Of a DNA stretch of 64,000 nucleotides, positions 2,214-56,132 are shown piece by piece. The first letter of the stretch is position 1; each line of letters begins with the position of its first letter. Origin of the DNA: Dehalococcoidia bacterium (GTDB taxonomy: Bacteria > Chloroflexota > Dehalococcoidia > UBA2979); NCBI GenBank assembly GCA_965208885.1, contig CBDBPS010000002.1:1237750-1301749 (forward strand), read 5' to 3'. The notes under the pieces are model-generated. The model ran no database searches. It saw only the letters and a list, made by a program, of their open reading frames with translations, and was not told where the DNA came from. Both the position numbers and the translations under genes were made by a program.

Positions 2214-2249
2214 CGCCGTCGCCCGCCCGGACAATGCGTCGTCGGGTGG

Positions 2250-2284
2250 GGTAAATCGAGCCTCGGACACCCTACGATGGTTCC
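2250..2284 (+). promoter_or_regulatory. conserved promoter-like motif GGTAAATCGAGCC...TACGAT-6nt-ATG upstream of LuxR-TM regulator paralog 1 (leaderless start implied)
   Basis: Near-identical motif upstream of the paralogs at 6440-6475 and 52519-52551 (minus strand). Confidence 0.4.
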
Positions 2285-3565
2285 ATGGAGCGCAACCGTC
2301 GCGGCAGACCGCCCCACCCCGATGTGCTCACCCCGGCCGAGTGGCGCGTGCTCGAGGCGCTGCGCGACGGCGGGACGAACGCCGAGATCGCCACGCGCCT
2401 CGGCCTCAGCGCCGACACGGTGAAGTACCACATCTCGAACATGCTCGCGAAGCTGGAGCTGCGCGACCGTCGCGCGCTCGCCTCGTGGCGCCCCGAGGAG
2501 CGTCGAGGCCGCCTCGGCGCGCTGTTCACGGTGCCAGCGGTGGTGTGGTCGGTCGCGAGGCCGATCGCGTGGGTGGGGGCGGGGACGGCGGCTGTCGCGG
2601 GTGTGGTGGTGGGCGTCGTCGCCGTCGTGGCGCTGGTGGCCGTGGTGCTCGTCACCGCGGGCGGCGACAGCGACCCACCACCGCCGGTCGCGCCGACGCC
2701 GACGCACACCTCGACGCCCGCCCCGACGCGGACGCCGACTCCCGGGCTCGCGCCTGATCACCAGGACGACTGGTACGTTATCAGGGACACTTGGTTCAGG
2801 GACCCTTCGTACAGGAACTCACCACTGCCCCCTGGCCTGTACATCTACCGCGACGAGGAGTTCGAACCCCTGATCTTCGAGGTTCCGCCAGACACTCTCA
2901 TCAGGACAGGGGGCGTCTTCTATTTTGGAGGGTCAGATAGGCTCTGGCTCGATCTTGACGATATCCGGACCGGATCCTTTCTCCGCATCGAGGTGCGCTC
3001 CATCACTAACCGCTGGATCCAGCTGAGCCGTTACCACGACGGGTGCTTCTACGAATTGGGCGAGCCGTGCGAAGACCGGCGAGACGCCGCCGAAGACGTC
3101 CTTACCCGGATCCTTGCGTCGGTTGAGGGCTGCGCGAAGTCCACGCACCCCATCTGCAACTACGACCCACCGCCACCCGAGCCAACACCCGCACCTCGGC
3201 CACCCCGTTTGTGCCGGCCCGCACAACAGGTAGGCGCCGTGTTCGTCAGCGAGGCAGAGCTCCTGCACGACGGATACGTCATGCGCTCAGACGGTGATCG
3301 GCCGGTAATCTACAAGTTCAGGATCCGGCCGCAAGGCCGGCCAGACACACCGCCGACGCTGTATTTCTCGGTGCCAGAGGGGCTCCCACTCCGGTTCCAT
3401 GCGCGCGACGAAGAGACCATCACCCTCCGACACGCAGAGACCGACCTGTGGGTCCGTTACCACCTGTATGGAGGATACGAGGTTGGGCGTCACCCCGACG
3501 GCTCAGGATGGGCCAGAGGTCTGCTGCATCACGTGTCATCGTCGACCTGCGTCATCCCCCCATGA
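2285..3565 (+). CDS. membrane-anchored LuxR/GerE-family regulator: N-terminal HTH, single TM, Pro/Thr linker and a C-terminal extracytoplasmic domain of unknown family (paralog 1)
   Basis: Residues 14-75 match the LuxR C-terminal-type HTH ('LTPAEWRVLEALRDGGTNAEIATRLGLSADTVKYHISNMLAKLEL'). A hydrophobic helix 'AAVAGVVVGVVAVVALVAVVLV' follows, then a PPPPVAPTPTHTSTPAPTRTPTP linker. The region from 2760 onward has lower GC than surrounding DNA. Confidence 0.75.
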   Translation: MERNRRGRPPHPDVLTPAEWRVLEALRDGGTNAEIATRLGLSADTVKYHISNMLAKLELRDRRALASWRPEERRGRLGALFTVPAVVWSVARPIAWVGAGTAAVAGVVVGVVAVVALVAVVLVTAGGDSDPPPPVAPTPTHTSTPAPTRTPTPGLAPDHQDDWYVIRDTWFRDPSYRNSPLPPGLYIYRDEEFEPLIFEVPPDTLIRTGGVFYFGGSDRLWLDLDDIRTGSFLRIEVRSITNRWIQLSRYHDGCFYELGEPCEDRRDAAEDVLTRILASVEGCAKSTHPICNYDPPPPEPTPAPRPPRLCRPAQQVGAVFVSEAELLHDGYVMRSDGDRPVIYKFRIRPQGRPDTPPTLYFSVPEGLPLRFHARDEETITLRHAETDLWVRYHLYGGYEVGRHPDGSGWARGLLHHVSSSTCVIPP

Positions 3566-6372: not shown

Positions 6373-6439
6373 CCTGCTCTCACCACCGTGCCGCGTCGAG
6401 GATACAGGGCGTCTCGTCGCGGGGCGCGAGGGTCGGGTA

Positions 6440-6475
6440 GGGAAACCTCGGCGCTCCGCACACTAGGATGGTTCG
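6440..6475 (+). promoter_or_regulatory. conserved promoter-like motif GGGAAACCTCGGC...TAGGAT-6nt-ATG upstream of paralog 2
   Basis: Aligned with 2250-2284 and 52519-52551. Confidence 0.35.
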
Positions 6476-8478
6476 ATGGAGCGCAACCGTGGCGGCCGAC
6501 CCCGGCACCCCGACGTCCTGACGCCGGCCGAGTGGCGGGTGCTCGAGGCGTTGCGCGAGGGCGGGACGAACGCCGAGATCGGCGCACGGCTCGGGATCAG
6601 CGCCGACGCGGTCAAGTACCACGTCTCGAACATGCTCGGGAAGCTGGAGTTGCGCGACCGCCGCGCGCTCGCCGCTTGGCGCCCCCAGGAGCGTCGAGGC
6701 CGGATGCCGGCGTGGTTCGCGGTCCCGGCGGCCCTCGCGGCCATCGCGCGGCCGGTCGCGTGGGTGGGGATCGGGACCGCGGCCGCTGTTGTGGCGGTGG
6801 CCGTGGTGCTCATAGTGGTGACAGGCGACGGCGAGCCGTCCTCGGTCGCCCTCCCGCCGGTCGCCACGCCCGACGCCACTTCGACGCCAGCGGCGACGGC
6901 GACGGTCGCGCCGACGGCGAGCGCGACGCCATCGCTCGCGCCGACCGTCACGCCCGCACCGGAACCAACGCCGACGCCCACACCAACTCCAGCGTCGACG
7001 CCGACGCCCACACCAACGCCGACCGCGGCACGCACGGGTCCTTCGGCACCGACGCTGCCGCCGTATTCGCTCACGGTGACCATCACGGGGCCTGGAGGCG
7101 AGGTTACGCCCGCGGGGATCACGACGCAGGACGCGAACAGCGAGGTGACGCTGACAGCCGCTTGGAACGACGCGACGCACGACTTCGGTGGCTGGACCGG
7201 CGACTGCAGCGGCACGACCACGACGTGCGTGCTCACGATGGATGCGGACAAGACGATGACCGCGACGTTCACTGCGTTGCCCGCCACGCGCTGCGCGACT
7301 CCCGCCGCCGCAGACTGCATCCGCGCCGTGTACCGGGCGCGCCCACGGACTACGCCCAGGTCGTCGATATCCCGGCGGAGGTGCTGATCACGCGACGTGG
7401 GGACGGTCACTACCCCGTGAGGCGTGGGCAGCAGATCACTGTGGTGACCGCTGCGCCGCTACCCACCGGTTGGACGCGCTTCTACCTGGAGCGCGACGCG
7501 GGGCCGACGTACTGGACGCCGTCGCCTGTGAGCTTCTCGCAACTCATCCAGCCCGTGGGGACGACCTACACGTTCACGGTGACCACCGACGATCGCGGCG
7601 CGGACCTCATCACGTTCGACCTGACCGCCGCGAAGCCACACCCGGAGCGGCCAACGGACAAGCCGGTGCTCGGCGACGTCGTCGTGACCACCGCCATTAG
7701 GGTCGTTCCTCAGAGCATCTTCAGCACGTGCAGGACGGGAACGCCTGTCCCCAACCCCGCAGCGAATCCTGCCCTCGTCGAGGACTGCGAGGCCCTGATC
7801 GCGTGGCGGGACACGCTAGCGGGTACGGCCACGCTCGAGTGGCACGCAGGCATTGCGATGACGAGCTGGCAGGGCGTGACTGTCGCGGGGACCCCGAGCC
7901 GCGTCACGAAGCTGGAGCTCGCGGACACAGGGTTCACGGGCGAGCTCTCGGGTCTCGTCGGCGAGCTCACGGGACTGACGGAACTGCGCCTGAACGGCAA
8001 CGCTCTCTCGGGGCGCATCCCTTCGAAGGTGGCGCTGCTGAGCCGCCTCACCCACGTTTACCTGGGTGGGAACGCGATCACAGGCTACGTGCCTCCATCG
8101 CTGCGGGCCGTCGCGAACCACGATATCGCGACCCTCGGCGGCCTCCCGGACTGTGGCGCTCCCGTGGATGTGTCCTACGGAGACCACACGCTGACCGCCG
8201 GCACGTACCAGGTCATCTGGGCTGAAGGCGATCCGCCGCTGGTCTTTGACATACCACCTGGGCTCCAGCTGGAGGTGGATGGCTGGGCGTACCAGGGTCC
8301 GGACGAGGTTGGGCTGATCCTGCGGGAGGTAAACGGTGAGGCGTTCATTGGTCTCGACGTGTACGGGCTGTACGGGGGCCCGGAATGGGGCCGCTATCTG
8401 CCCGATCCCGGCGACGACGCCCGCCTGATTCCACTCTTCGACCGCGTCGTTGAGTCAGCATGGATAGACGAAGGGTAG
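6476..8478 (+). pseudogene. membrane-anchored LuxR/GerE-family regulator with extracytoplasmic plant-type LRR sensor (paralog 2); the reading frame is broken by a 1-nt deletion near 7335-7345 (frameshift or sequencing error)
   Basis: Frame 2 (6476..7387) encodes the HTH, TM helix and a long Pro/Thr/Ala linker. Frame 1 continues without stops to 8478 and encodes an LRRNT-like cap ('C.AL..WR.........W.GV.V.G...RVT.L.L') plus LRRs ('LSGLVGELTGLTELRLNGNALSGRIPSKVALLSRLTHVYLGGNAITGYVP'). The frame junction maps by nucleotide alignment to the intact paralog at 50908..52518. The N-terminal part of the track ORF 6184..8478 is not homologous to that paralog. Confidence 0.6.
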
Positions 8479-50841: not shown

Positions 50842-50907
50842 CCCAGCCTCGCGTAGACCCGCCGTATGACAGCCTACGCCTGCGCCCGACCCGGCGCGAG
50901 GCTCGAC

Positions 50908-52518
50908 CTAGTCCTGCTCCCACATGGACTCGACGATCCGGTCGAAGATCTCGCTGGTGTCCGCCCGAACTCCAGTCGGGAAGTCCGGCGCGAATTTGCG
51001 GACCCATTCTCCGCCGAACTCCACGTCGAGTCCTATTGATGCGGTCTGGCTTGCATTTCGGATGATGATGCCGACATCTCCACCTCTCGGTACCGCCAAG
51101 GCGGTGTCAGGCGTAGCCAAGAAAACTCCCTTGAAGATCAGCTGCTCGCCTGGGGGTATGTCGAAGACCAGTGAAGTAGCCTCCAAGTCGAGGCGGTAAG
51201 TACCGGGAGCTAGAACGCCATCCCATTCGATAGTCTCGATGTCAGCGGGCGCTCCGCAGTCGTCGTGTGTGACGTCGTTCGTCGCCACCTGACGCAGTAC
51301 CGGGGGCGCGCACCCCTCGAAGTCCGTCCCCGTGATGGAGACGCTCGTCAGGCTGTCCAGTTGCGCAAGCTTCGACGGGAGCATGCCCGTGAGTGGGTTG
51401 CCACTGAGGTCCAGCGTCGTCAGCCCGGTGAGATTGCCGAGCAGCCCCGACAGCTCGCCGTCGAGGCCGAGGTCTGCCAGGTCGAGGGCGGTGACGCGTT
51501 GGGGCGTGCCGGAGACCGTGACGCCCATCCACTCGGACATCGCCTTCGCCGCCGTCCAGTTGAGCCTGCCCGTCCCGCGGATCGTGTCGCGCAGGCCCAG
51601 CAGCGACTCGCAGTCCGCCACGAGCTCGGTGTTCGTCGTCGGGTTCGTCGCGATCCCCGACGAGCAGTCCTGCACCTCGACGCCGGTCGTGACCACGGTG
51701 GCGCCGATCTCCGGCTTGCCGTCCGACGGCGGGCGGGGGAAGGGCCGCGCGGCCTTCAGGTTGTAGGTGACGGTCGACGCCGCGGTGGCCTCATCGCTGA
51801 CCGTGAAGGTGTACGTCGTCCCTACCGGTGGGATGAGCCTCGATGCCGAGACCGGTGGGATGACCGGTGACGGCTCGAGGTAGAAGCGCGTCCAGCCGCC
51901 GGGCAGCCGCGCCGCTGTGACGACCGTGACCTCGAGCCCCGCGTCGACGTGGTAGGTGCCGCCCGGCCCGGCGTTGAGCCGCATCGCGGACGGGATGTCG
52001 ACGACGTGTGCGTAGTCCCCGGGCGCGCCGATGTAGACCGCGTGGATGCACGTCGGGTCGGTCGGTGTCGCGCAAGCGTCGGGCGCTGGGGCCGGTGCTG
52101 CGGGCGTCGGGTCGGTCGGCGGCGCGACGGCCGCCGACGGGTCGCTGTCACCCTCCACGACCGCCTCGAGGGCCACGAGCGCCACCACCACGACGACGAC
52201 ACCGCCAAGCGCCGCCGCGCCAGCCCCGACCCACACCAGGGGCCGCCCCAGCGACCACAGCGCTGCCGGCAGCGCGAACAGCGCGCCCAGGCGGCCTCGA
52301 CGCCCTTCGGGGCGCCAGGCGACGAGTGCGCGGCGGTCGCGCAGCTCCAGCTTCGTGAGCATGTTCGAGATGTGCGTCTTGACCGTCTCGGCGCTGAGGC
52401 CGAGGCGCGCCGCGATCTCGGCGTTCGTGCCGCCGTCGCGCAGTGCATCGAGCACCCGCCACTCGGCGGGCGTCAGCACATCGGGATGGCGTGGCCGGCC
52501 GCGACGGTTGCGCTCCAC
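50908..52518 (-). CDS. membrane-anchored LuxR/GerE-family regulator with extracytoplasmic plant-type LRR sensor (paralog 3, intact)
   Basis: GTG start at 52518 is chosen by homology: 'VERNRRGRPRHPDVLTPAEWRVL' aligns with 'MERNRRGRP' of the paralogs. HTH, TM helix, Ala/Pro linker, LRRNT-like cap ('CESLLGLRDT...W.GV.V.G...RVTAL.L') and LRRs ('LSGLLGNLTGLTTLDLSGNPLTGMLPSKLAQLDSLTS') follow. The track ORF extends to 52662, but that region is not conserved. Confidence 0.75.
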   Translation of the reverse strand: MERNRRGRPRHPDVLTPAEWRVLDALRDGGTNAEIAARLGLSAETVKTHISNMLTKLELRDRRALVAWRPEGRRGRLGALFALPAALWSLGRPLVWVGAGAAALGGVVVVVVALVALEAVVEGDSDPSAAVAPPTDPTPAAPAPAPDACATPTDPTCIHAVYIGAPGDYAHVVDIPSAMRLNAGPGGTYHVDAGLEVTVVTAARLPGGWTRFYLEPSPVIPPVSASRLIPPVGTTYTFTVSDEATAASTVTYNLKAARPFPRPPSDGKPEIGATVVTTGVEVQDCSSGIATNPTTNTELVADCESLLGLRDTIRGTGRLNWTAAKAMSEWMGVTVSGTPQRVTALDLADLGLDGELSGLLGNLTGLTTLDLSGNPLTGMLPSKLAQLDSLTSVSITGTDFEGCAPPVLRQVATNDVTHDDCGAPADIETIEWDGVLAPGTYRLDLEATSLVFDIPPGEQLIFKGVFLATPDTALAVPRGGDVGIIIRNASQTASIGLDVEFGGEWVRKFAPDFPTGVRADTSEIFDRIVESMWEQD

Positions 52519-52551
52519 GGAACCATCGTAGAGCCTGTGGCGCGAATTACC
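52519..52551 (-). promoter_or_regulatory. conserved promoter-like motif GGTAATTCGCGCC...TACGAT-6nt-GTG upstream of paralog 3
   Basis: Alignment with the motifs at 2250-2284 and 6440-6475. Confidence 0.35.
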
Positions 52552-52662
52552 TCCCCCGGCTGCCCGCCGGGGCCCACGTGCAGTGACGGCCCCTACAAGG
52601 TCGACGAGGGGTGACCCGGCCTGGACGACCGCTCGCAGCGCGATCAGATCGTCCGTCCGCAC

Positions 52663-53553
52663 CTACGGCACGATCACCGTCATCGACGCTGCAACCGGCT
52701 CGCCGTTGCGCATGTACGGCTCGTGCGTGTTGGTGGTGAGCGTCACCCGAACCTCCCGTTCGCCGGGCGTCAGCCCTCCGAGGAAGAACCACGGTCCGTA
52801 CACGCGCCCGATCTTCTCGCCGTCGACGTAGATGTGCGCGTGCCCCTCGCCGGAAACGTGATCGCCGTTGACCGACTCGGGCGCGAACGCGAAGCCGGTG
52901 GCATCGATGCGCACGTTGAAGGCGCCGCCGCCGTGTGCGTCGGCTTCCGCGCGCACCTGCACCGACATCCCCTCGGGCGCTTCGACCGTCTCGTCCTGGG
53001 CGTGCATGTGGGCGCCGTCCCCGGGTGCGGGCACGGTCACCGTCCGGGTGGCGTCGACGAGGCCCGCGCTCCGCACGTAGTCGGCGTGCGAGTTGGTGCT
53101 GAGCGAGACTCGCACCTCGTGGGCACCGTGGGTGAGGCCGACGAGGTGGTAGCTCGGCCCGTAGAGGCGCGTGATCTTCACGCCGTCGACGTAGAGATGG
53201 GCGTGGCCCTGGCCGGGTATGTGCTCGCTGTTGACGGCCTCCGGGGTGAACGTGAACCCCGGCGTGGTGACTGTGATGTTGTATCCGGAAACGGCATCGG
53301 GCTCGACCTGCAACTCGACGGACGTACCCTCGGGCGCCTCGACGGACGCCGTCATTACGTGGCTAGTGGCGGACGCCTGCATGCCCCCGGACAGGGCATC
53401 ACCGCCTGCATCGGTAGCCTCGTGGCTATGGGTGGAGTGGTCGTGTTCCTGGGCCGGTTGGTCGTCGCGGACGCCGACCACGACGACGCCGGCGAGTGCC
53501 GCAAGGGCGAGGACGGCGAGGGCGACGAACAGTCGCAGCCGTGTGAGACGCAT
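52663..53553 (-). CDS. secreted or membrane-anchored protein with two tandem homologous His-rich domains of about 95 aa (possible metal-binding beta-sandwich; family uncertain)
   Basis: Signal/TM 'MRLTRLRLFVALAVLALAALAGVVVVG', then repeats containing 'GQGHAHLYVDGVKITRLYGP' and 'GEGHAHIYVDGEKIGRVYGP'. ATG 53553 follows a GAAGGA RBS; the track start GTG 53616 is the alternative. Confidence 0.65.
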   Translation of the reverse strand: MRLTRLRLFVALAVLALAALAGVVVVGVRDDQPAQEHDHSTHSHEATDAGGDALSGGMQASATSHVMTASVEAPEGTSVELQVEPDAVSGYNITVTTPGFTFTPEAVNSEHIPGQGHAHLYVDGVKITRLYGPSYHLVGLTHGAHEVRVSLSTNSHADYVRSAGLVDATRTVTVPAPGDGAHMHAQDETVEAPEGMSVQVRAEADAHGGGAFNVRIDATGFAFAPESVNGDHVSGEGHAHIYVDGEKIGRVYGPWFFLGGLTPGEREVRVTLTTNTHEPYMRNGEPVAASMTVIVP

Positions 53554-53814
53554 CGGTAGCGTTCCTTCGCAATGTGCATGGCGCACTCGGCGCGGCCGGA
53601 CGGCCGTCGCGAGCACGTGAGGAGTGCCTGGGGGTCAGGGCGGGAGCTACGCCCGAGGTGGCTCGGTCGGGACGGAGAGCGGGCGGGTGCGTGGAGTGGG
53701 CGCCACGCTCGCGAGCTCCCGATCAACTCGCGCGGCACGGGACGTGGCCCCATCGACGAGCTGGCCGTGCTGAGCTACACGCCGCCGTCCCCCGCGTAAC
53801 CTCGCCCCGTCGAT

Positions 53815-54792: not shown

Positions 54793-55617
54793 ATGTTCAG
54801 GACCATCGGCCACACGTTCGAGTTGATGAAGATGAGCTGGCGCGTGCTCATGATGGACCGCGAGCTGATCCTGTTTCCGATCATGTCAGGCGTCGCACTG
54901 CTGGTGCTCGTGGGTGCGATGCTCGGGATCGCCGGGACGACGGGTACCCTCGACCGCGTCAGCGAGGGGTCGTCTGAGTCGGTCGGGGCCGTCGACGCGA
55001 TCCTCGGCGCGGCCCTCGTGTTCCTCTCCTCGGCGATCGTGATCTTCTTCAACGCCGCACTGATTGCAGCCGCGCTCGAGCGGCTGCGGGGCGGCGACCC
55101 CAACATCGGCTCGGGCCTGCGCGCTGCCAGCGCGCGCCTGCCGCAGATCCTGGCTTGGGCCCTGATCACCGTGATCGTCTCGATGATCCTGCAGGCGCTG
55201 CGCGAGCGCGGCGGCATCGCCGGGAGCATCGCCTCGATGATCGGCGGCGTGGCCTGGGGCCTCGCGACGTTCTTCGTGATCCCCGTGCTGGTCGCCGAGG
55301 GCGTCGGGCCGATCGAGGCGATCAAGCGCTCGGCCGGGCTGCTGCGGCAGACGTGGGGCAACCAGCTCACGGCGAACTTCGGCTTCATGATCGTCGGGCT
55401 GCTCGGCGTGCTCGTGGCGATCATCCCGGCGGCGCTGCTGTTCTTCGTGCACCCGCTGCTCGGCATCGCCGTGGGGGTCCCGCTGGTGGCCGTGGCGATC
55501 GGCACCGTGCAGGCGCTCGAGGGCATCTTCAAGGCCGCGCTCTACGACTACGCCCGAGGCGATGTCCCGCACGGCTTCGACCGCGACACCCTGGCCAGCG
55601 CCTACCGCGCGATGTAG
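54793..55617 (+). CDS. hypothetical polytopic membrane protein
   Basis: GGGAGGA RBS before ATG 54793; about six TM helices. The upstream part of the track ORF is R-rich junk. Confidence 0.6.
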   Translation: MFRTIGHTFELMKMSWRVLMMDRELILFPIMSGVALLVLVGAMLGIAGTTGTLDRVSEGSSESVGAVDAILGAALVFLSSAIVIFFNAALIAAALERLRGGDPNIGSGLRAASARLPQILAWALITVIVSMILQALRERGGIAGSIASMIGGVAWGLATFFVIPVLVAEGVGPIEAIKRSAGLLRQTWGNQLTANFGFMIVGLLGVLVAIIPAALLFFVHPLLGIAVGVPLVAVAIGTVQALEGIFKAALYDYARGDVPHGFDRDTLASAYRAM

Positions 55618-55652
55618 CCCTCGACGCGATTCGTGGCGGCGGGCCGTCCGCG

Positions 55653-56132
55653 TTAGCGGGCGGGGATCAGGTCGCGCGTCAGTTCGGCGTGCCCGAGGTG
55701 GGTCGCGACGTGGGTGGCGGTGGCGAGGAGCAGTTGCCGCCCGCTCTCCGTGCCCCGCACCGGGTGCTCGAACGTCGCGAGCAGCGCGCTCTCCTCGATG
55801 CTCGAGAGCGACGCCGGGATGCGCTCGCGCAGCGACGCCCAGCGCTCCTCGAGCGCCTCGGAGGTCGCTCCCGACGATGCGAACTCCGCCTCGCGGTCAC
55901 GCTCGCCGGGCTCCCCGCAGAGCATGAACAGCGTGGCCTGCTCGGTCAGCCCGAGGGCGTGCGAGGCGAGGATGTAGAGGCTGTTGGCGCCCTCGGCGGC
56001 GTGAGGCCCGGTCGTCGGTCGCCAGTTGAGCCGGTCGCCGTCGAGCCCGCTGGTCAGGCTGACGAGCTGGTCGAGCGCGCTCTCGAGCTGCCCCCAGGCG
56101 ATCTCGATCTCGTTGCTGGCGAAGTCCGGCAT
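55653..56132 (-). CDS. DinB/YfiT-like (DinB_2) metal-dependent protein
   Basis: Four-helix-bundle signature histidines ('LASHALG', 'THVATHLGHAEL'). AAGGA RBS before ATG 56132. Confidence 0.75.
   Translation of the reverse strand: MPDFASNEIEIAWGQLESALDQLVSLTSGLDGDRLNWRPTTGPHAAEGANSLYILASHALGLTEQATLFMLCGEPGERDREAEFASSGATSEALEERWASLRERIPASLSSIEESALLATFEHPVRGTESGRQLLLATATHVATHLGHAELTRDLIPAR

Follow-up and report, generated by a model that had tools for sequence, protein, structure and literature searches.

Residue-to-base covariation in an expanded family of predicted membrane-anchored LuxR-type regulators with varied ectodomains in Dehalococcoidia

Three paralogous genes in the 64 kb window (the whole stretch of DNA analysed, from a high-GC, Dehalococcoidia-like Chloroflexota genome), which we refer to as paralogs A, B and C (Table 1), are best explained as one-component, single-pass transmembrane (TM) transcription regulators that would each read a box in their own promoter and sense a ligand with their ectodomain, and we consider this whole reading likely. 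Transmembrane transcription regulators (TTRs) are already known as a class; what is new here is the promoter, its box and a rule that matches residues of the protein to bases of that box. A literature search (covering the architecture, LuxR with eukaryote-like domains in sponge symbionts, and N-terminal LuxR-type membrane regulators) returned no description of the family.

Table 1. Coordinates in the window of the three paralogs, the parts of paralog A and the promoter elements.
Feature	Position	Strand	Description and basis
Paralog A, complete gene	50908..52518	-	predicted membrane-anchored LuxR-type regulator, 536 aa; ORF and translation
A: N-terminal basic arm RRGRP, residues 5-9	52492..52506	-	resembles AT-hook core; sequence
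A: LuxR/GerE (NarL-type) HTH, residues 13-67	52318..52482	-	recognition helix ETVKTHISNML
A: TM helix (predicted), residues 94-121	52156..52239	-	hydropathy peak 2.74, charge and Cys asymmetry
A: acidic Pro/Thr/Ala-rich extracytoplasmic linker, residues 122-148	52075..52155	-	sequence; low pLDDT
A: beta-rich ectodomain domain, residues 149-295	51634..52074	-	Cys pair C149/C157; AF2 strands, pLDDT 65-87
A: capped LRR block, residues 296-421	51256..51633	-	helical N-cap, three 24-residue plant-class repeats, Cys-containing C-cap
A: C-terminal module of ~115 aa	50911..51255	-	GTY...FD[IV]P...FDRIxES; common to all three paralogs; no fold family assigned
A: promoter box, GGGGGAGGTAATTCG	52543..52557	-	-39..-25 from start codon; PWM score 15.8
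A: -10 hexamer, TACGAT	52525..52530	-	ends 6 nt before GTG
Paralog B	6476..8478	+	N-terminal module as in A; reading frame broken at 7334-7337; tblastn
B: promoter box, GGGTAGGGAAACCTC	6435..6449	+	PWM score 26.0
B: -10 hexamer, TAGGAT	6464..6469	+	
Paralog C	2285..3565	+	426 aa; shares the N-terminal module with A (82% identity over 96 aa)
C: promoter box, GGGTGGGGTAAATCG	2244..2258	+	PWM score 24.7
C: -10 hexamer, TACGAT	2273..2278	+	

Paralog A runs from a GTG start codon at 52518 to a TAG stop at 50908-50910, its product matches database protein P0001 exactly, and its AF2 model has a mean pLDDT of 76.9. Pfam GerE (PF00196) matches paralogs A, B and C with 57.2, 50.1 and 56.9 bits, all above the cut-off of 23.5, as well as 93 of 93 family representatives, and the four-helix HTH fold superposes on solved LuxR/GerE members, with VraR, NarL, DosR and GerE as the nearest solved DNA-binding domains. 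Compared with these NarL/FixJ-family domains (DegU included), the domain here stands at the extreme N-terminus without a receiver or ligand domain, is preceded by a basic xGRP arm, and would recognise an asymmetric site rather than an inverted repeat. The arm recalls the AT-hook, the core of which is R-G-R-P: A and C carry this core with flanking basic residues (RRGRPRH and RRGRPPH), B has an incomplete core (RGGRPRH), and many family members have GGRP, PGRP or QGRP in place of RGRP, with correspondingly shorter A/T tracts in the box. It differs from the AT-hook in that it occurs once and runs directly into an HTH helix. A weak fourth HTH match in the window (55578..55862) was rejected as spurious because its frame is non-coding and lies opposite a gene of the DinB family.

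An anti-sigma factor or ECF sigma fusion was also ruled out: no sigma-2 or anti-sigma domain (e.g. zf-HC2, RsgI_N) was matched, and the sigma-type profile matches were only region-4-like and overlapped the GerE match. This separates the family from the RsgI-type anti-sigma factors of cellulolytic clostridia, which have a similar layout (autoregulated paralogs with a conserved cytoplasmic N-terminal module, one TM segment and diverse extracellular binding modules) and whose cytoplasmic modules target a sigma factor rather than DNA.

The N-terminal module is followed by ectodomains of 415 aa in A, about 545 aa in B and about 300 aa in C. Paralog B has, in order, a longer Pro/Thr linker, an InlB B-repeat-like segment, the beta domain, an LRR block and the C-terminal module; one G missing at 7334-7337 splits it over two frames (6476..7387 and ..8478), and its alignment to P0101 continues straight over the break. 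The ectodomain of C is different from that of A and carries the shared C-terminal-type module without LRRs, as the original prediction had implied for the third paralog. The beta-rich domain of A (residues 149-295) has no Pfam family match and is also kept in B and in relatives of ~800 aa that lack the HTH.

The original prediction of an N-terminal HTH, one TM helix, a Pro/Thr/Ala linker and an extracytoplasmic domain is borne out by the GerE match, hydropathy and the charge and Cys statistics of the family. Paralog A has a single strong hydrophobic peak (KD 2.74), which comes after a short hydrophobic juxtamembrane stretch and a nearly invariant R-P. Among 79 family members the N-side TM flank averages 2.1 K+R and 0.37 D+E vs. 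0.8 and 3.47 on the C-side, and Cys residues average 0.04 N-terminally vs. 4.7 C-terminally, their number being even in 97% of members. Because of this charge and Cys asymmetry, the predicted orientation is N-in/C-out with a cytoplasmic HTH, the side on which the original prediction had placed it. In the ~800-aa relatives an N-terminal signal anchor takes the place of the HTH and TM segment in front of the same ectodomain. Having GerE (13-67) and a TM region in one protein, paralog A is a TTR as defined in the 2023 TTR census (PMC10269533).

ToxR, TcpP and CadC share this layout of a cytoplasmic N-terminal DNA-binding domain, single TM helix and extracytoplasmic sensor, and the ToxR/CadC-like topology on a LuxR-type rather than OmpR-type HTH holds up in Pfam, in the solved-fold neighbours and in the 79-member statistics. 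ToxR and CadC, however, combine an OmpR-type winged helix (Trans_reg_C) with a long cytoplasmic linker, whereas here a GerE/NarL-type domain sits on a very short tether, no Trans_reg_C match was found at E ≤ 1 in Pfam, and no ToxS- or TcpH-like partner gene lies beside the family genes. By these sequence comparisons the family resembles ToxR in topology and is not a ToxR homologue.

The short tether, about 10-30 residues between the end of the HTH (about residue 68) and the membrane, bears on whether the HTH would act while anchored. Regulated proteolysis may instead be needed for its activity, with an inactive store in the membrane from which the soluble arm and HTH would be released to the box; a ligand would then trigger site-1/site-2 cleavage, by analogy with RseA, RsgI-type anti-sigma factors, SREBP and Notch. 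Site-2 proteases need helix-breaking residues in their substrates, and R92, P93 and G98, which are of this kind, are conserved in the hydrophobic region of the family, for which AF2 gives an unstructured segment of low confidence with no single regular helix. No protease gene is linked to the family genes in the window and the loci examined, however, and co-translational insertion would already hold a gene's own promoter near the membrane. ToxR and CadC-type regulators, moreover, act while anchored (PMC10269533). We regard release by proteolysis as possible but on the unlikely side.

The original prediction described the ectodomain of A and B as a plant-type LRR sensor with an LRRNT_2-like cap, and here the repeats stood whilst the cap cysteines did not. 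Sequence supports assignment of the repeats to the plant-specific class, defined by the 24-residue repeat LxxLxLxxNxL(S/T)GxIPxxLxx: the family consensus has a period of 24, with G16 in 177/180 repeats, P19 in 179/180 and I/L/V at position 18. A has only three LRRs, one canonical (365-388) and two degenerate, and their Pfam scores are marginal. Among solved folds, the LRR block comes closest to the ectodomains of plant receptor kinases and PGIP, ahead of bacterial LRR proteins. LRRNT_2 had no Pfam match at E ≤ 1 in the paralogs, and the cap sequence of A (EWMGVTV) is without the plant C-x-W-x-G-V-x-C cysteines, a Cys pair (C285/C303) lying before the cap; the fold alignments span 116-157 residues vs. 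72 for three repeats, consistent with a similar cap. Plant LRR receptors and PGIP (SERK1/BAK1, BIR, FLS2, PEPR1, PGIP) thus differ from A, with its about three repeats and no cap cysteines, and the output of the plant receptor kinases is a kinase where here it is a DNA-binding domain. Plant-class LRRs have previously been reported in bacteria.

LRRs are one of many ectodomain types found on the same N-terminal module, the others including RCC1, fn3, NHL/teneurin and similar. The expansion suggested by three copies in the window is real, the window being a local sample of it: at least 8 further members lie on the same 2.0 Mb contig (at least 10 in all), and related genomes hold 4-8 members each among the 80 loci kept of 357 matches. 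These 357 matches come from species-representative genomes, many of them sponge MAGs, and the family forms 133 clusters at 50% identity; the relatives are Dehalococcoidia and Tepidiformaceae MAGs, with sponge bins SB06xx, IRC3 and APA among them. Lineage-specific expansions are known among TTRs (PMC10269533). The architecture itself is confirmed, but is less unusual than first implied, as in the 2023 census GerE ranks third among the DNA-binding domains of TTRs (4943 proteins, 9.8%) and single-pass entries written GerE first are listed (PMC10269533). There the GerE-TTRs are catalogued with no promoter, arm or recognition rule described, and no combination with LRR occurs in the supplementary text consulted.

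The conserved upstream motif to which the original prediction had pointed turned out to be more informative than any other feature of the family, through the register of its box and its covariation with the protein. Across 65 loci a TAnnnT is found at positions -12..-7 relative to the start codon (T in 52, A in 57 and T in 57) and, in fixed register with it, a 15-nt box occupies -41..-27, where a -35 element would sit. The TAnnnT ends 6 nt before the start codon, which therefore implies leaderless mRNAs, each family gene having its own promoter; likewise the box would lie upstream of the transcript, and there is no support for a conserved element in the RNA, be it a hairpin or a 5' leader. No canonical -35/-10 pair, sigma-70 promoter or intrinsic terminator was found around A. 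The trkH gene downstream of A seemingly has its own TAnnnT and a GAGG. Because the family promoters are without a -35 consensus and an extended -10, activation by the bound protein is favoured over repression. A classical lux-box-type palindrome was rejected, the mean best 7+7 inverted repeat scoring 5.10 vs. 5.01 in shuffles, and a palindromic box occurs only in one subclass (GGGGAGG-AAA-CCTCCCC). The missing dyad symmetry is unusual for LuxR-type dimers.

PWM scanning found the box in the window only upstream of the three paralogs, in related loci (480 kb) family genes stand downstream of about 85 of the 88 strong sites, and no output regulon emerged from the ~0.6 Mb scanned. The ~800-aa LRR relatives without the HTH have no box upstream and therefore cannot be shown to be targets. 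Conserved operon partners were likewise absent among the loci compared: neighbours differ between genomes and give no functional hint (TrkH, MFS, CinA, metallo-beta-lactamase and phosphoesterase in the window, CoA-transferases elsewhere).

A box confined almost entirely to the family's own promoters is what would be expected if the ectodomain were itself the output, as a surface adhesin or host-interaction factor, with the HTH merely setting its own copy number by private feedback. The HTH-less relatives, with the same ectodomain on plain anchored or secreted proteins, fit this too, as do the ectodomain types: eukaryote-like proteins (ELPs) with LRR, fn3, NHL and WD40-like domains are enriched in sponge-associated bacteria, including Chloroflexota, and have been proposed as host-interaction mediators in sponge symbionts (PMC6306507, PMC11706023). 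It is hard to see, however, what purpose a feedback loop that senses nothing would serve, conservation is much stronger in the HTH module (82% between A and C) than in the ectodomains, which are unrelated in these two paralogs, and a scan of about 0.6 Mb leaves room for other targets. We therefore rate the ectodomain as output rather improbable, and retain the ectodomain as sensor.

That the proteins read these boxes is indicated by covariation. In 62 unique protein-box pairs, residue 48 tracks box position 6 (Y with G in 39/39, T with A in 16/16), residue 45 tracks position 5 (A with A in 25/25, T with G in 32/37), and residue 6 of the arm tracks position 12 (R with A/T in 30/30, G with C in 30/31) together with the length of the A/T run (5 in 30/30 with R, 3 in 29/31 with G). 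Residue 48 with box 6 and residue 6 with box 12 have the two highest normalised mutual information (MI) values among 1369 column pairs, the MI of the matched pairs being 0.83, 0.66 and 0.74 bit. Box 5/6 and box 12 are just 6-7 bp apart, yet the arm/A-T-tract pair has an MI of 0.00-0.04 bit with the helix pair; cross-term MI inside the helix pair is 0.25-0.39 bit. Phylogenetically independent contrasts were concordant in 6/6 cases for residue 6 and in 4/5 and 4/5 for the other two pairs, and each of the six residue combinations is found with the box that fits it. The three paralogs follow the rule as well: T45/G5, T48/A6 and R6/T12 in A, A45/A5, Y48/G6 and G6/C12 in B, and T45/G5, Y48/G6 and R6/A12 in C.

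The rule was replicated in a second, metagenome collection that supplied 63 additional pairs, mostly 50-65% identical, where it held in 62/63 for residue 45, in 62/63 for residue 48 and in 33/33 for R-GRP with A/T, and where N-T-V-R went with A at box 3 in 10/10. Several non-contact residues also have high MI with promoter positions, and part of the covariation could be co-inheritance because box and gene are adjacent. Since the rule held at 62/63 per helix position in the independent set, we infer that the HTH binds DNA sequence-specifically and that each protein would bind the box of its own promoter, autoregulation being the best reading. It is very unlikely that another common factor (a dedicated sigma factor or separate regulator) reads the box whilst the promoter hitch-hikes with the adjacent first 50 codons: a non-palindromic box that coincides with the -35 position at constant spacing, with a GGGAAAC that resembles ECF-type -35 motifs, and the correlated non-contact residues would suit such a factor, but the TAnnnT is a -10 of the housekeeping type, three different boxes in one genome would not be tolerated by a single trans factor, box 12 is tightly coupled to residue 6 and independent of box 5/6, box 5/6 is coupled to residues about 175 bp away, and the rule replicates in divergent lineages.

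For self-recognition, the covariation suggests that each protein binds its box probably as an asymmetric unit, that residues 45, 47 and 48, where the recognition helix starts, would read box positions 3-6, and that residue 6 of the arm would read the A/T tract at positions 9-13; the arm as a minor-groove A/T-tract binder has indirect support, the presence of R6 tracking the 5-bp tract. Because paralogs of one genome carry different residue/box pairs, their loops would be at least partly insulated from each other. A ligand on the ectodomain would change HTH activity, putatively via clustering at the membrane or via release, and because of the LRR, RCC1, fn3 and NHL modules this putative ligand would most likely be a protein or glycan that belongs to the envelope, to neighbouring cells or to a host.

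The family thereby moves from an entry in the catalogue of GerE-type TTRs to one with a testable mechanism, comprising an operator, a leaderless promoter and a replicated residue-to-base rule, in which three single substitutions are predicted to switch box specificity. Exchangeable ectodomains with a private, apparently programmable operator could provide a synthetic biosensor chassis, provided that the signalling step holds. Sponge-symbiont ELPs are usually viewed as secreted or injected effectors, whereas here such domains are fused via a TM helix to a transcription-factor domain; at least some of them may be receptor ectodomains tied directly to transcription, and would offer a route to what symbionts sense in their host. 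More speculatively, sponge-associated Dehalococcoidia may use eukaryote-like repeats as receptor ectodomains rather than secreted effectors, in an expandable array whose members would each sense a different host or community protein and each have their own leaderless promoter and an insulated, reprogrammable code. If this is true, the array would be a bacterial counterpart of the LRR pattern-recognition receptors of plants and animals.

Paralog A lies in a window of ~70% G+C and its reading frame can be extended upstream to 52662; we set the start at the GTG codon (52518) because of the family-wide N-terminus MERNR(R/G)GRP, an identical database protein (P0001) and the promoter geometry. Pfam assigns GerE to residues 13-67 (57.2 bits, cut-off 23.5) with weaker, overlapping Sigma70_r4 matches, NCBIfam matches are only to the DNA-binding ends of NarL, CsgD, EpsA, MalT and PedR, and among solved structures the HTH is nearest in sequence to the DNA-binding domains of VraR, NarL, DosR and GerE (E ~1e-8), the recognition helix reading TVKTHISNML in A and TVKTHVSNIL in VraR. 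An AlphaFold2 model from 49 relatives (mean pLDDT 76.9) has high confidence at the HTH and over residues 150-536, with residues 72-136 poorly modelled. An anti-sigma or ECF fusion was rejected on the Pfam and NCBIfam results, as was a ToxR-family homologue, since ToxR carries Trans_reg_C, which is absent here, and these proteins carry GerE.

The hydropathy plot has a single strong peak at residues 94-121; before it come a short run of hydrophobic residues and an almost invariant R92-P93. Across the 79 members with an N-terminal HTH, the flanks hold 2.1 K+R on the N-side and 0.8 on the C-side, with D+E at 0.37 and 3.47, and cysteines number 0.04 per protein on the N-side and 4.7 on the C-side, where the number is even in 97%. 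Relatives of ~800 aa have these ectodomain modules too, placed after a plain N-terminal signal anchor. We conclude that the proteins are predicted to be N-in/C-out with a disulfide-bonded ectodomain, and by function and topology their sequences place them among the transmembrane transcription regulators. The 2023 census counts 50,302 of these, 56% single-pass; GerE ranks third among their DNA-binding domains (9.8%), and single-pass entries written GerE-first are among its lists (PMC10269533). A membrane-anchored LuxR HTH at the N-terminus is thus less unusual than the original prediction held; its observation as a whole is confirmed and its interpretation supported.

Positions of the features described, in window nucleotides, residues of A or locus coordinates
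Feature	Position	Strand	Size	Remark
Paralog A ORF	52518 (GTG) to 50908 (TAG)	-	536 aa	
Linker of A	residues 122-148			acidic Pro/Thr/Ala
Beta-rich domain of A	residues 149-295			no Pfam match
Capped LRR block of A	residues 296-421			
C-terminal module of A	residues 422-536		~115 aa	
Paralog B	6476..8478	+		architecture as A, plus long Pro/Thr linker and segment like InlB B-repeat
Frame shift in B	7334-7337	+		G run short of one G
Paralog C	2285..3565	+	426 aa	ectodomain without LRR
Protein directly upstream of A	52663-53616	-		membrane-anchored; two internal repeats, GxGHAHxYVDG in each
Gap from A to trkH	50842-50907	-	66 nt	TAGGCT and GAGG before trkH ATG
Box and -10 hexamer before small membrane ORF	L005:5067-5085	+		leader ~120 nt
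Box and -10 hexamer before small membrane ORF	L029:823-841	+		leader ~120 nt
Cyclase (-), ~820-aa anchored LRR protein without HTH, ~840-930-aa protein, family regulator gene	L083:2869-10445; L084:2870-10505			order as listed

Pfam support for LRRs in A is marginal (LRR_1 at 21.2 bits, cut-off 20.6; LRR_4 and LRR_8 under their cut-offs), and only one of its three 24-residue repeats, LTTLDLSGNPLTGMLPSKLAQLDS, is canonical. The plant-type assignment was nevertheless right, because the significant PDB matches of the LRR fold (Foldseek) are plant receptor ectodomains (SERK1/BAK1, PSKR, BIR, TMK3, FLS2, PGIP; 118-140 aligned columns, 25-28% identity) and the family-wide repeats have period 24 with G16 in 177 and P19 in 179 of 180, counted at repeat positions left unconstrained. 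In the cap, however, the plant cysteine pair is absent, and the Pfam search found no LRRNT_2 in A.

Searching the window with tblastn gave exactly two further paralogs, B and C, bearing out the claim of three in 64 kb. C shares 82% identity with A over the first 96 residues. At the frame shift in B, AVY-R-GAPTDY is expected and an intact relative aligns without interruption at the junction (AVY-R-GAP); B either became a pseudogene recently or carries an assembly error in the homopolymer. The protein directly upstream of A also has a His-rich N-terminal stretch, its sole match is a weak, sub-threshold DUF2846, and a possible function is metal binding in the envelope. Downstream, the gap to trkH contains no intrinsic terminator; because it contains TAGGCT and GAGG, trkH is probably served by a promoter and ribosome-binding site of its own, but read-through from A may also occur.

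The expansion of these putative envelope sensors is indeed family-wide. A word-indexed search returned 302 relatives, at least 8 of them on A's 2,012,002-bp contig (at least 10 members with B and C), and a one-genome-per-species scan returned 357 in Dehalococcoidia, Tepidiformaceae and 'Chloroflexi bacterium' MAGs, with at least 4-8 members on single chromosomes in the set of 80 loci retained. Bins SB06xx and APA derive from two sponges, Ircinia ramosa and Aplysina aerophoba (PMC11706023), the source of the other assemblies not being given. A first-100-residue profile retrieved 133 clusters at 50% identity (E<=1e-30; 1.84 billion representatives searched); because GerE is present in all 93 representatives examined and their ectodomains vary (LRR 15, RCC1 repeats 14, fn3 7, CarboxypepD_reg, PD40 and SH3_3 4 each, also teneurin-type TTR and NHL), the family is a constant N-terminal module joined to exchangeable extracellular interaction modules. 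The members are single-gene units, in some cases tandem, without conserved neighbourhoods. The best-scoring profile matches are five giant proteins of 2,854-7,703 aa (P0125, P0126, P0127, P0157, P0208), in which the LuxR-type N-terminal profile matches 8-23 stretches in tandem.

An upstream motif is common to A, B and C. Across 65 loci of many genomes, positions -12..-7, counted from the A of the start codon, read TAnnnT (T in 52, A in 57, T in 57), which is the signature of a leaderless mRNA, and a generally non-palindromic 15-nt box, GGGT(A/G)(G/A)GG(A/T)AA(A/T/C)(T/C)(T/C)C, starts at -41 in 30, -40 in 19 and -42 in 6. No canonical -35 was found at A's promoter. Box PWM matches in the window fall only upstream of A (15.8), B (26.0) and C (24.7), apart from one extra match at chance level, and of the 88 strong sites across 480 kb of related loci, ~85 are family promoters. 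Two strong sites, on two sponge MAG contigs, precede a small predicted membrane ORF (MNSPE...) adjoining family genes, which has no homologue in the window and could encode a partner protein or be another target. The two loci with an LRR gene lacking the HTH share a conserved gene order; that gene has no box upstream and the ~840-930-aa protein has no Pfam match.

Each N-terminal protein sequence was paired with its own box (62 unique pairs; box positions 1-15). Residue 48 (K-x-H, recognition helix) covaries with box 6 (Y with G 39/39, T with A 16/16), residue 45 (x-V-K) with box 5 (A with A 25/25, T with G 32/37) and residue 6, the x of the basic xGRP arm, with box 12 (R with A/T 30/30, G with C 30/31); the A/T run is 5 bp long where the arm is RGRP (30/30) and 3 bp where it is GGRP (29/31). 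RGRP is the AT-hook core, which binds the A/T minor groove, and residues 45-48 align with the first part of the recognition helix in NarL and DosR, which contacts bases. Normalised mutual information (MI), taken over 1369 pairings of a protein column with a DNA column, is highest for 48 x box 6 (0.91) and 6 x box 12 (0.84). The three matched pairs reach 0.83, 0.66 and 0.74 bit and the helix group (residues 45/48, box 5/6) 0.25-0.39 bit internally; between that group and residue 6/box 12 it is 0.00-0.04 bit, as it is between box 12 and box 5/6, 6-7 bp apart. Each of the six residue combinations is found together with its matching box, phylogenetically independent contrasts agree in 6/6, 4/5 and 4/5, and parsimony suggests ~8-9 independent changes for the arm/tract pair. 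In 80 held-out loci, taken from another collection and varied environments and mostly 50-65% identical (63 unique pairs), the rule holds for residue 45 in 62/63, residue 48 in 62/63 and R-GRP with A/T in 33/33, and a further rule links N-T-V-R to A at box 3 (10/10). A, B and C each conform, with three different boxes. Some non-contact residues also correlate with promoter positions, so co-inheritance of adjoining sequence may contribute; the modular, position-specific pattern and its replication make direct recognition of the box the best reading of these alignments.

We infer that arm and HTH would bind the box of their own gene. Binding would most likely activate transcription, because the box takes the place of the -35 element and these promoters have no extended -10, with repression a possible alternative. 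If the protein is inserted into the membrane during translation, its promoter would stay close to the anchored form. Engagement of the ectodomain might hypothetically modulate the HTH, with the regulator still anchored or once proteolysis has released it; release would agree with the shortness of the tether and with the R-P/G conserved within the hydrophobic region. The combination of arm, LuxR HTH, leaderless promoter and box also occurs far outside the sponge-associated group, in metagenome contigs from many environments (L096-L165), a few relatives there seemingly without a TM helix in the first 140 residues, and self-recognition may therefore be older than the membrane anchor.

A literature search found no paper on the family, its LRR/RCC1/fn3 ectodomains, promoter or recognition rule. 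The domain classes of its ectodomains appear as 'eukaryote-like' in sponge symbionts (PMC6306507, PMC11706023). The value of the family lies in its modular ectodomains, their link to these sponge-symbiont domains and a replicated protein-operator code, which makes the system directly testable.
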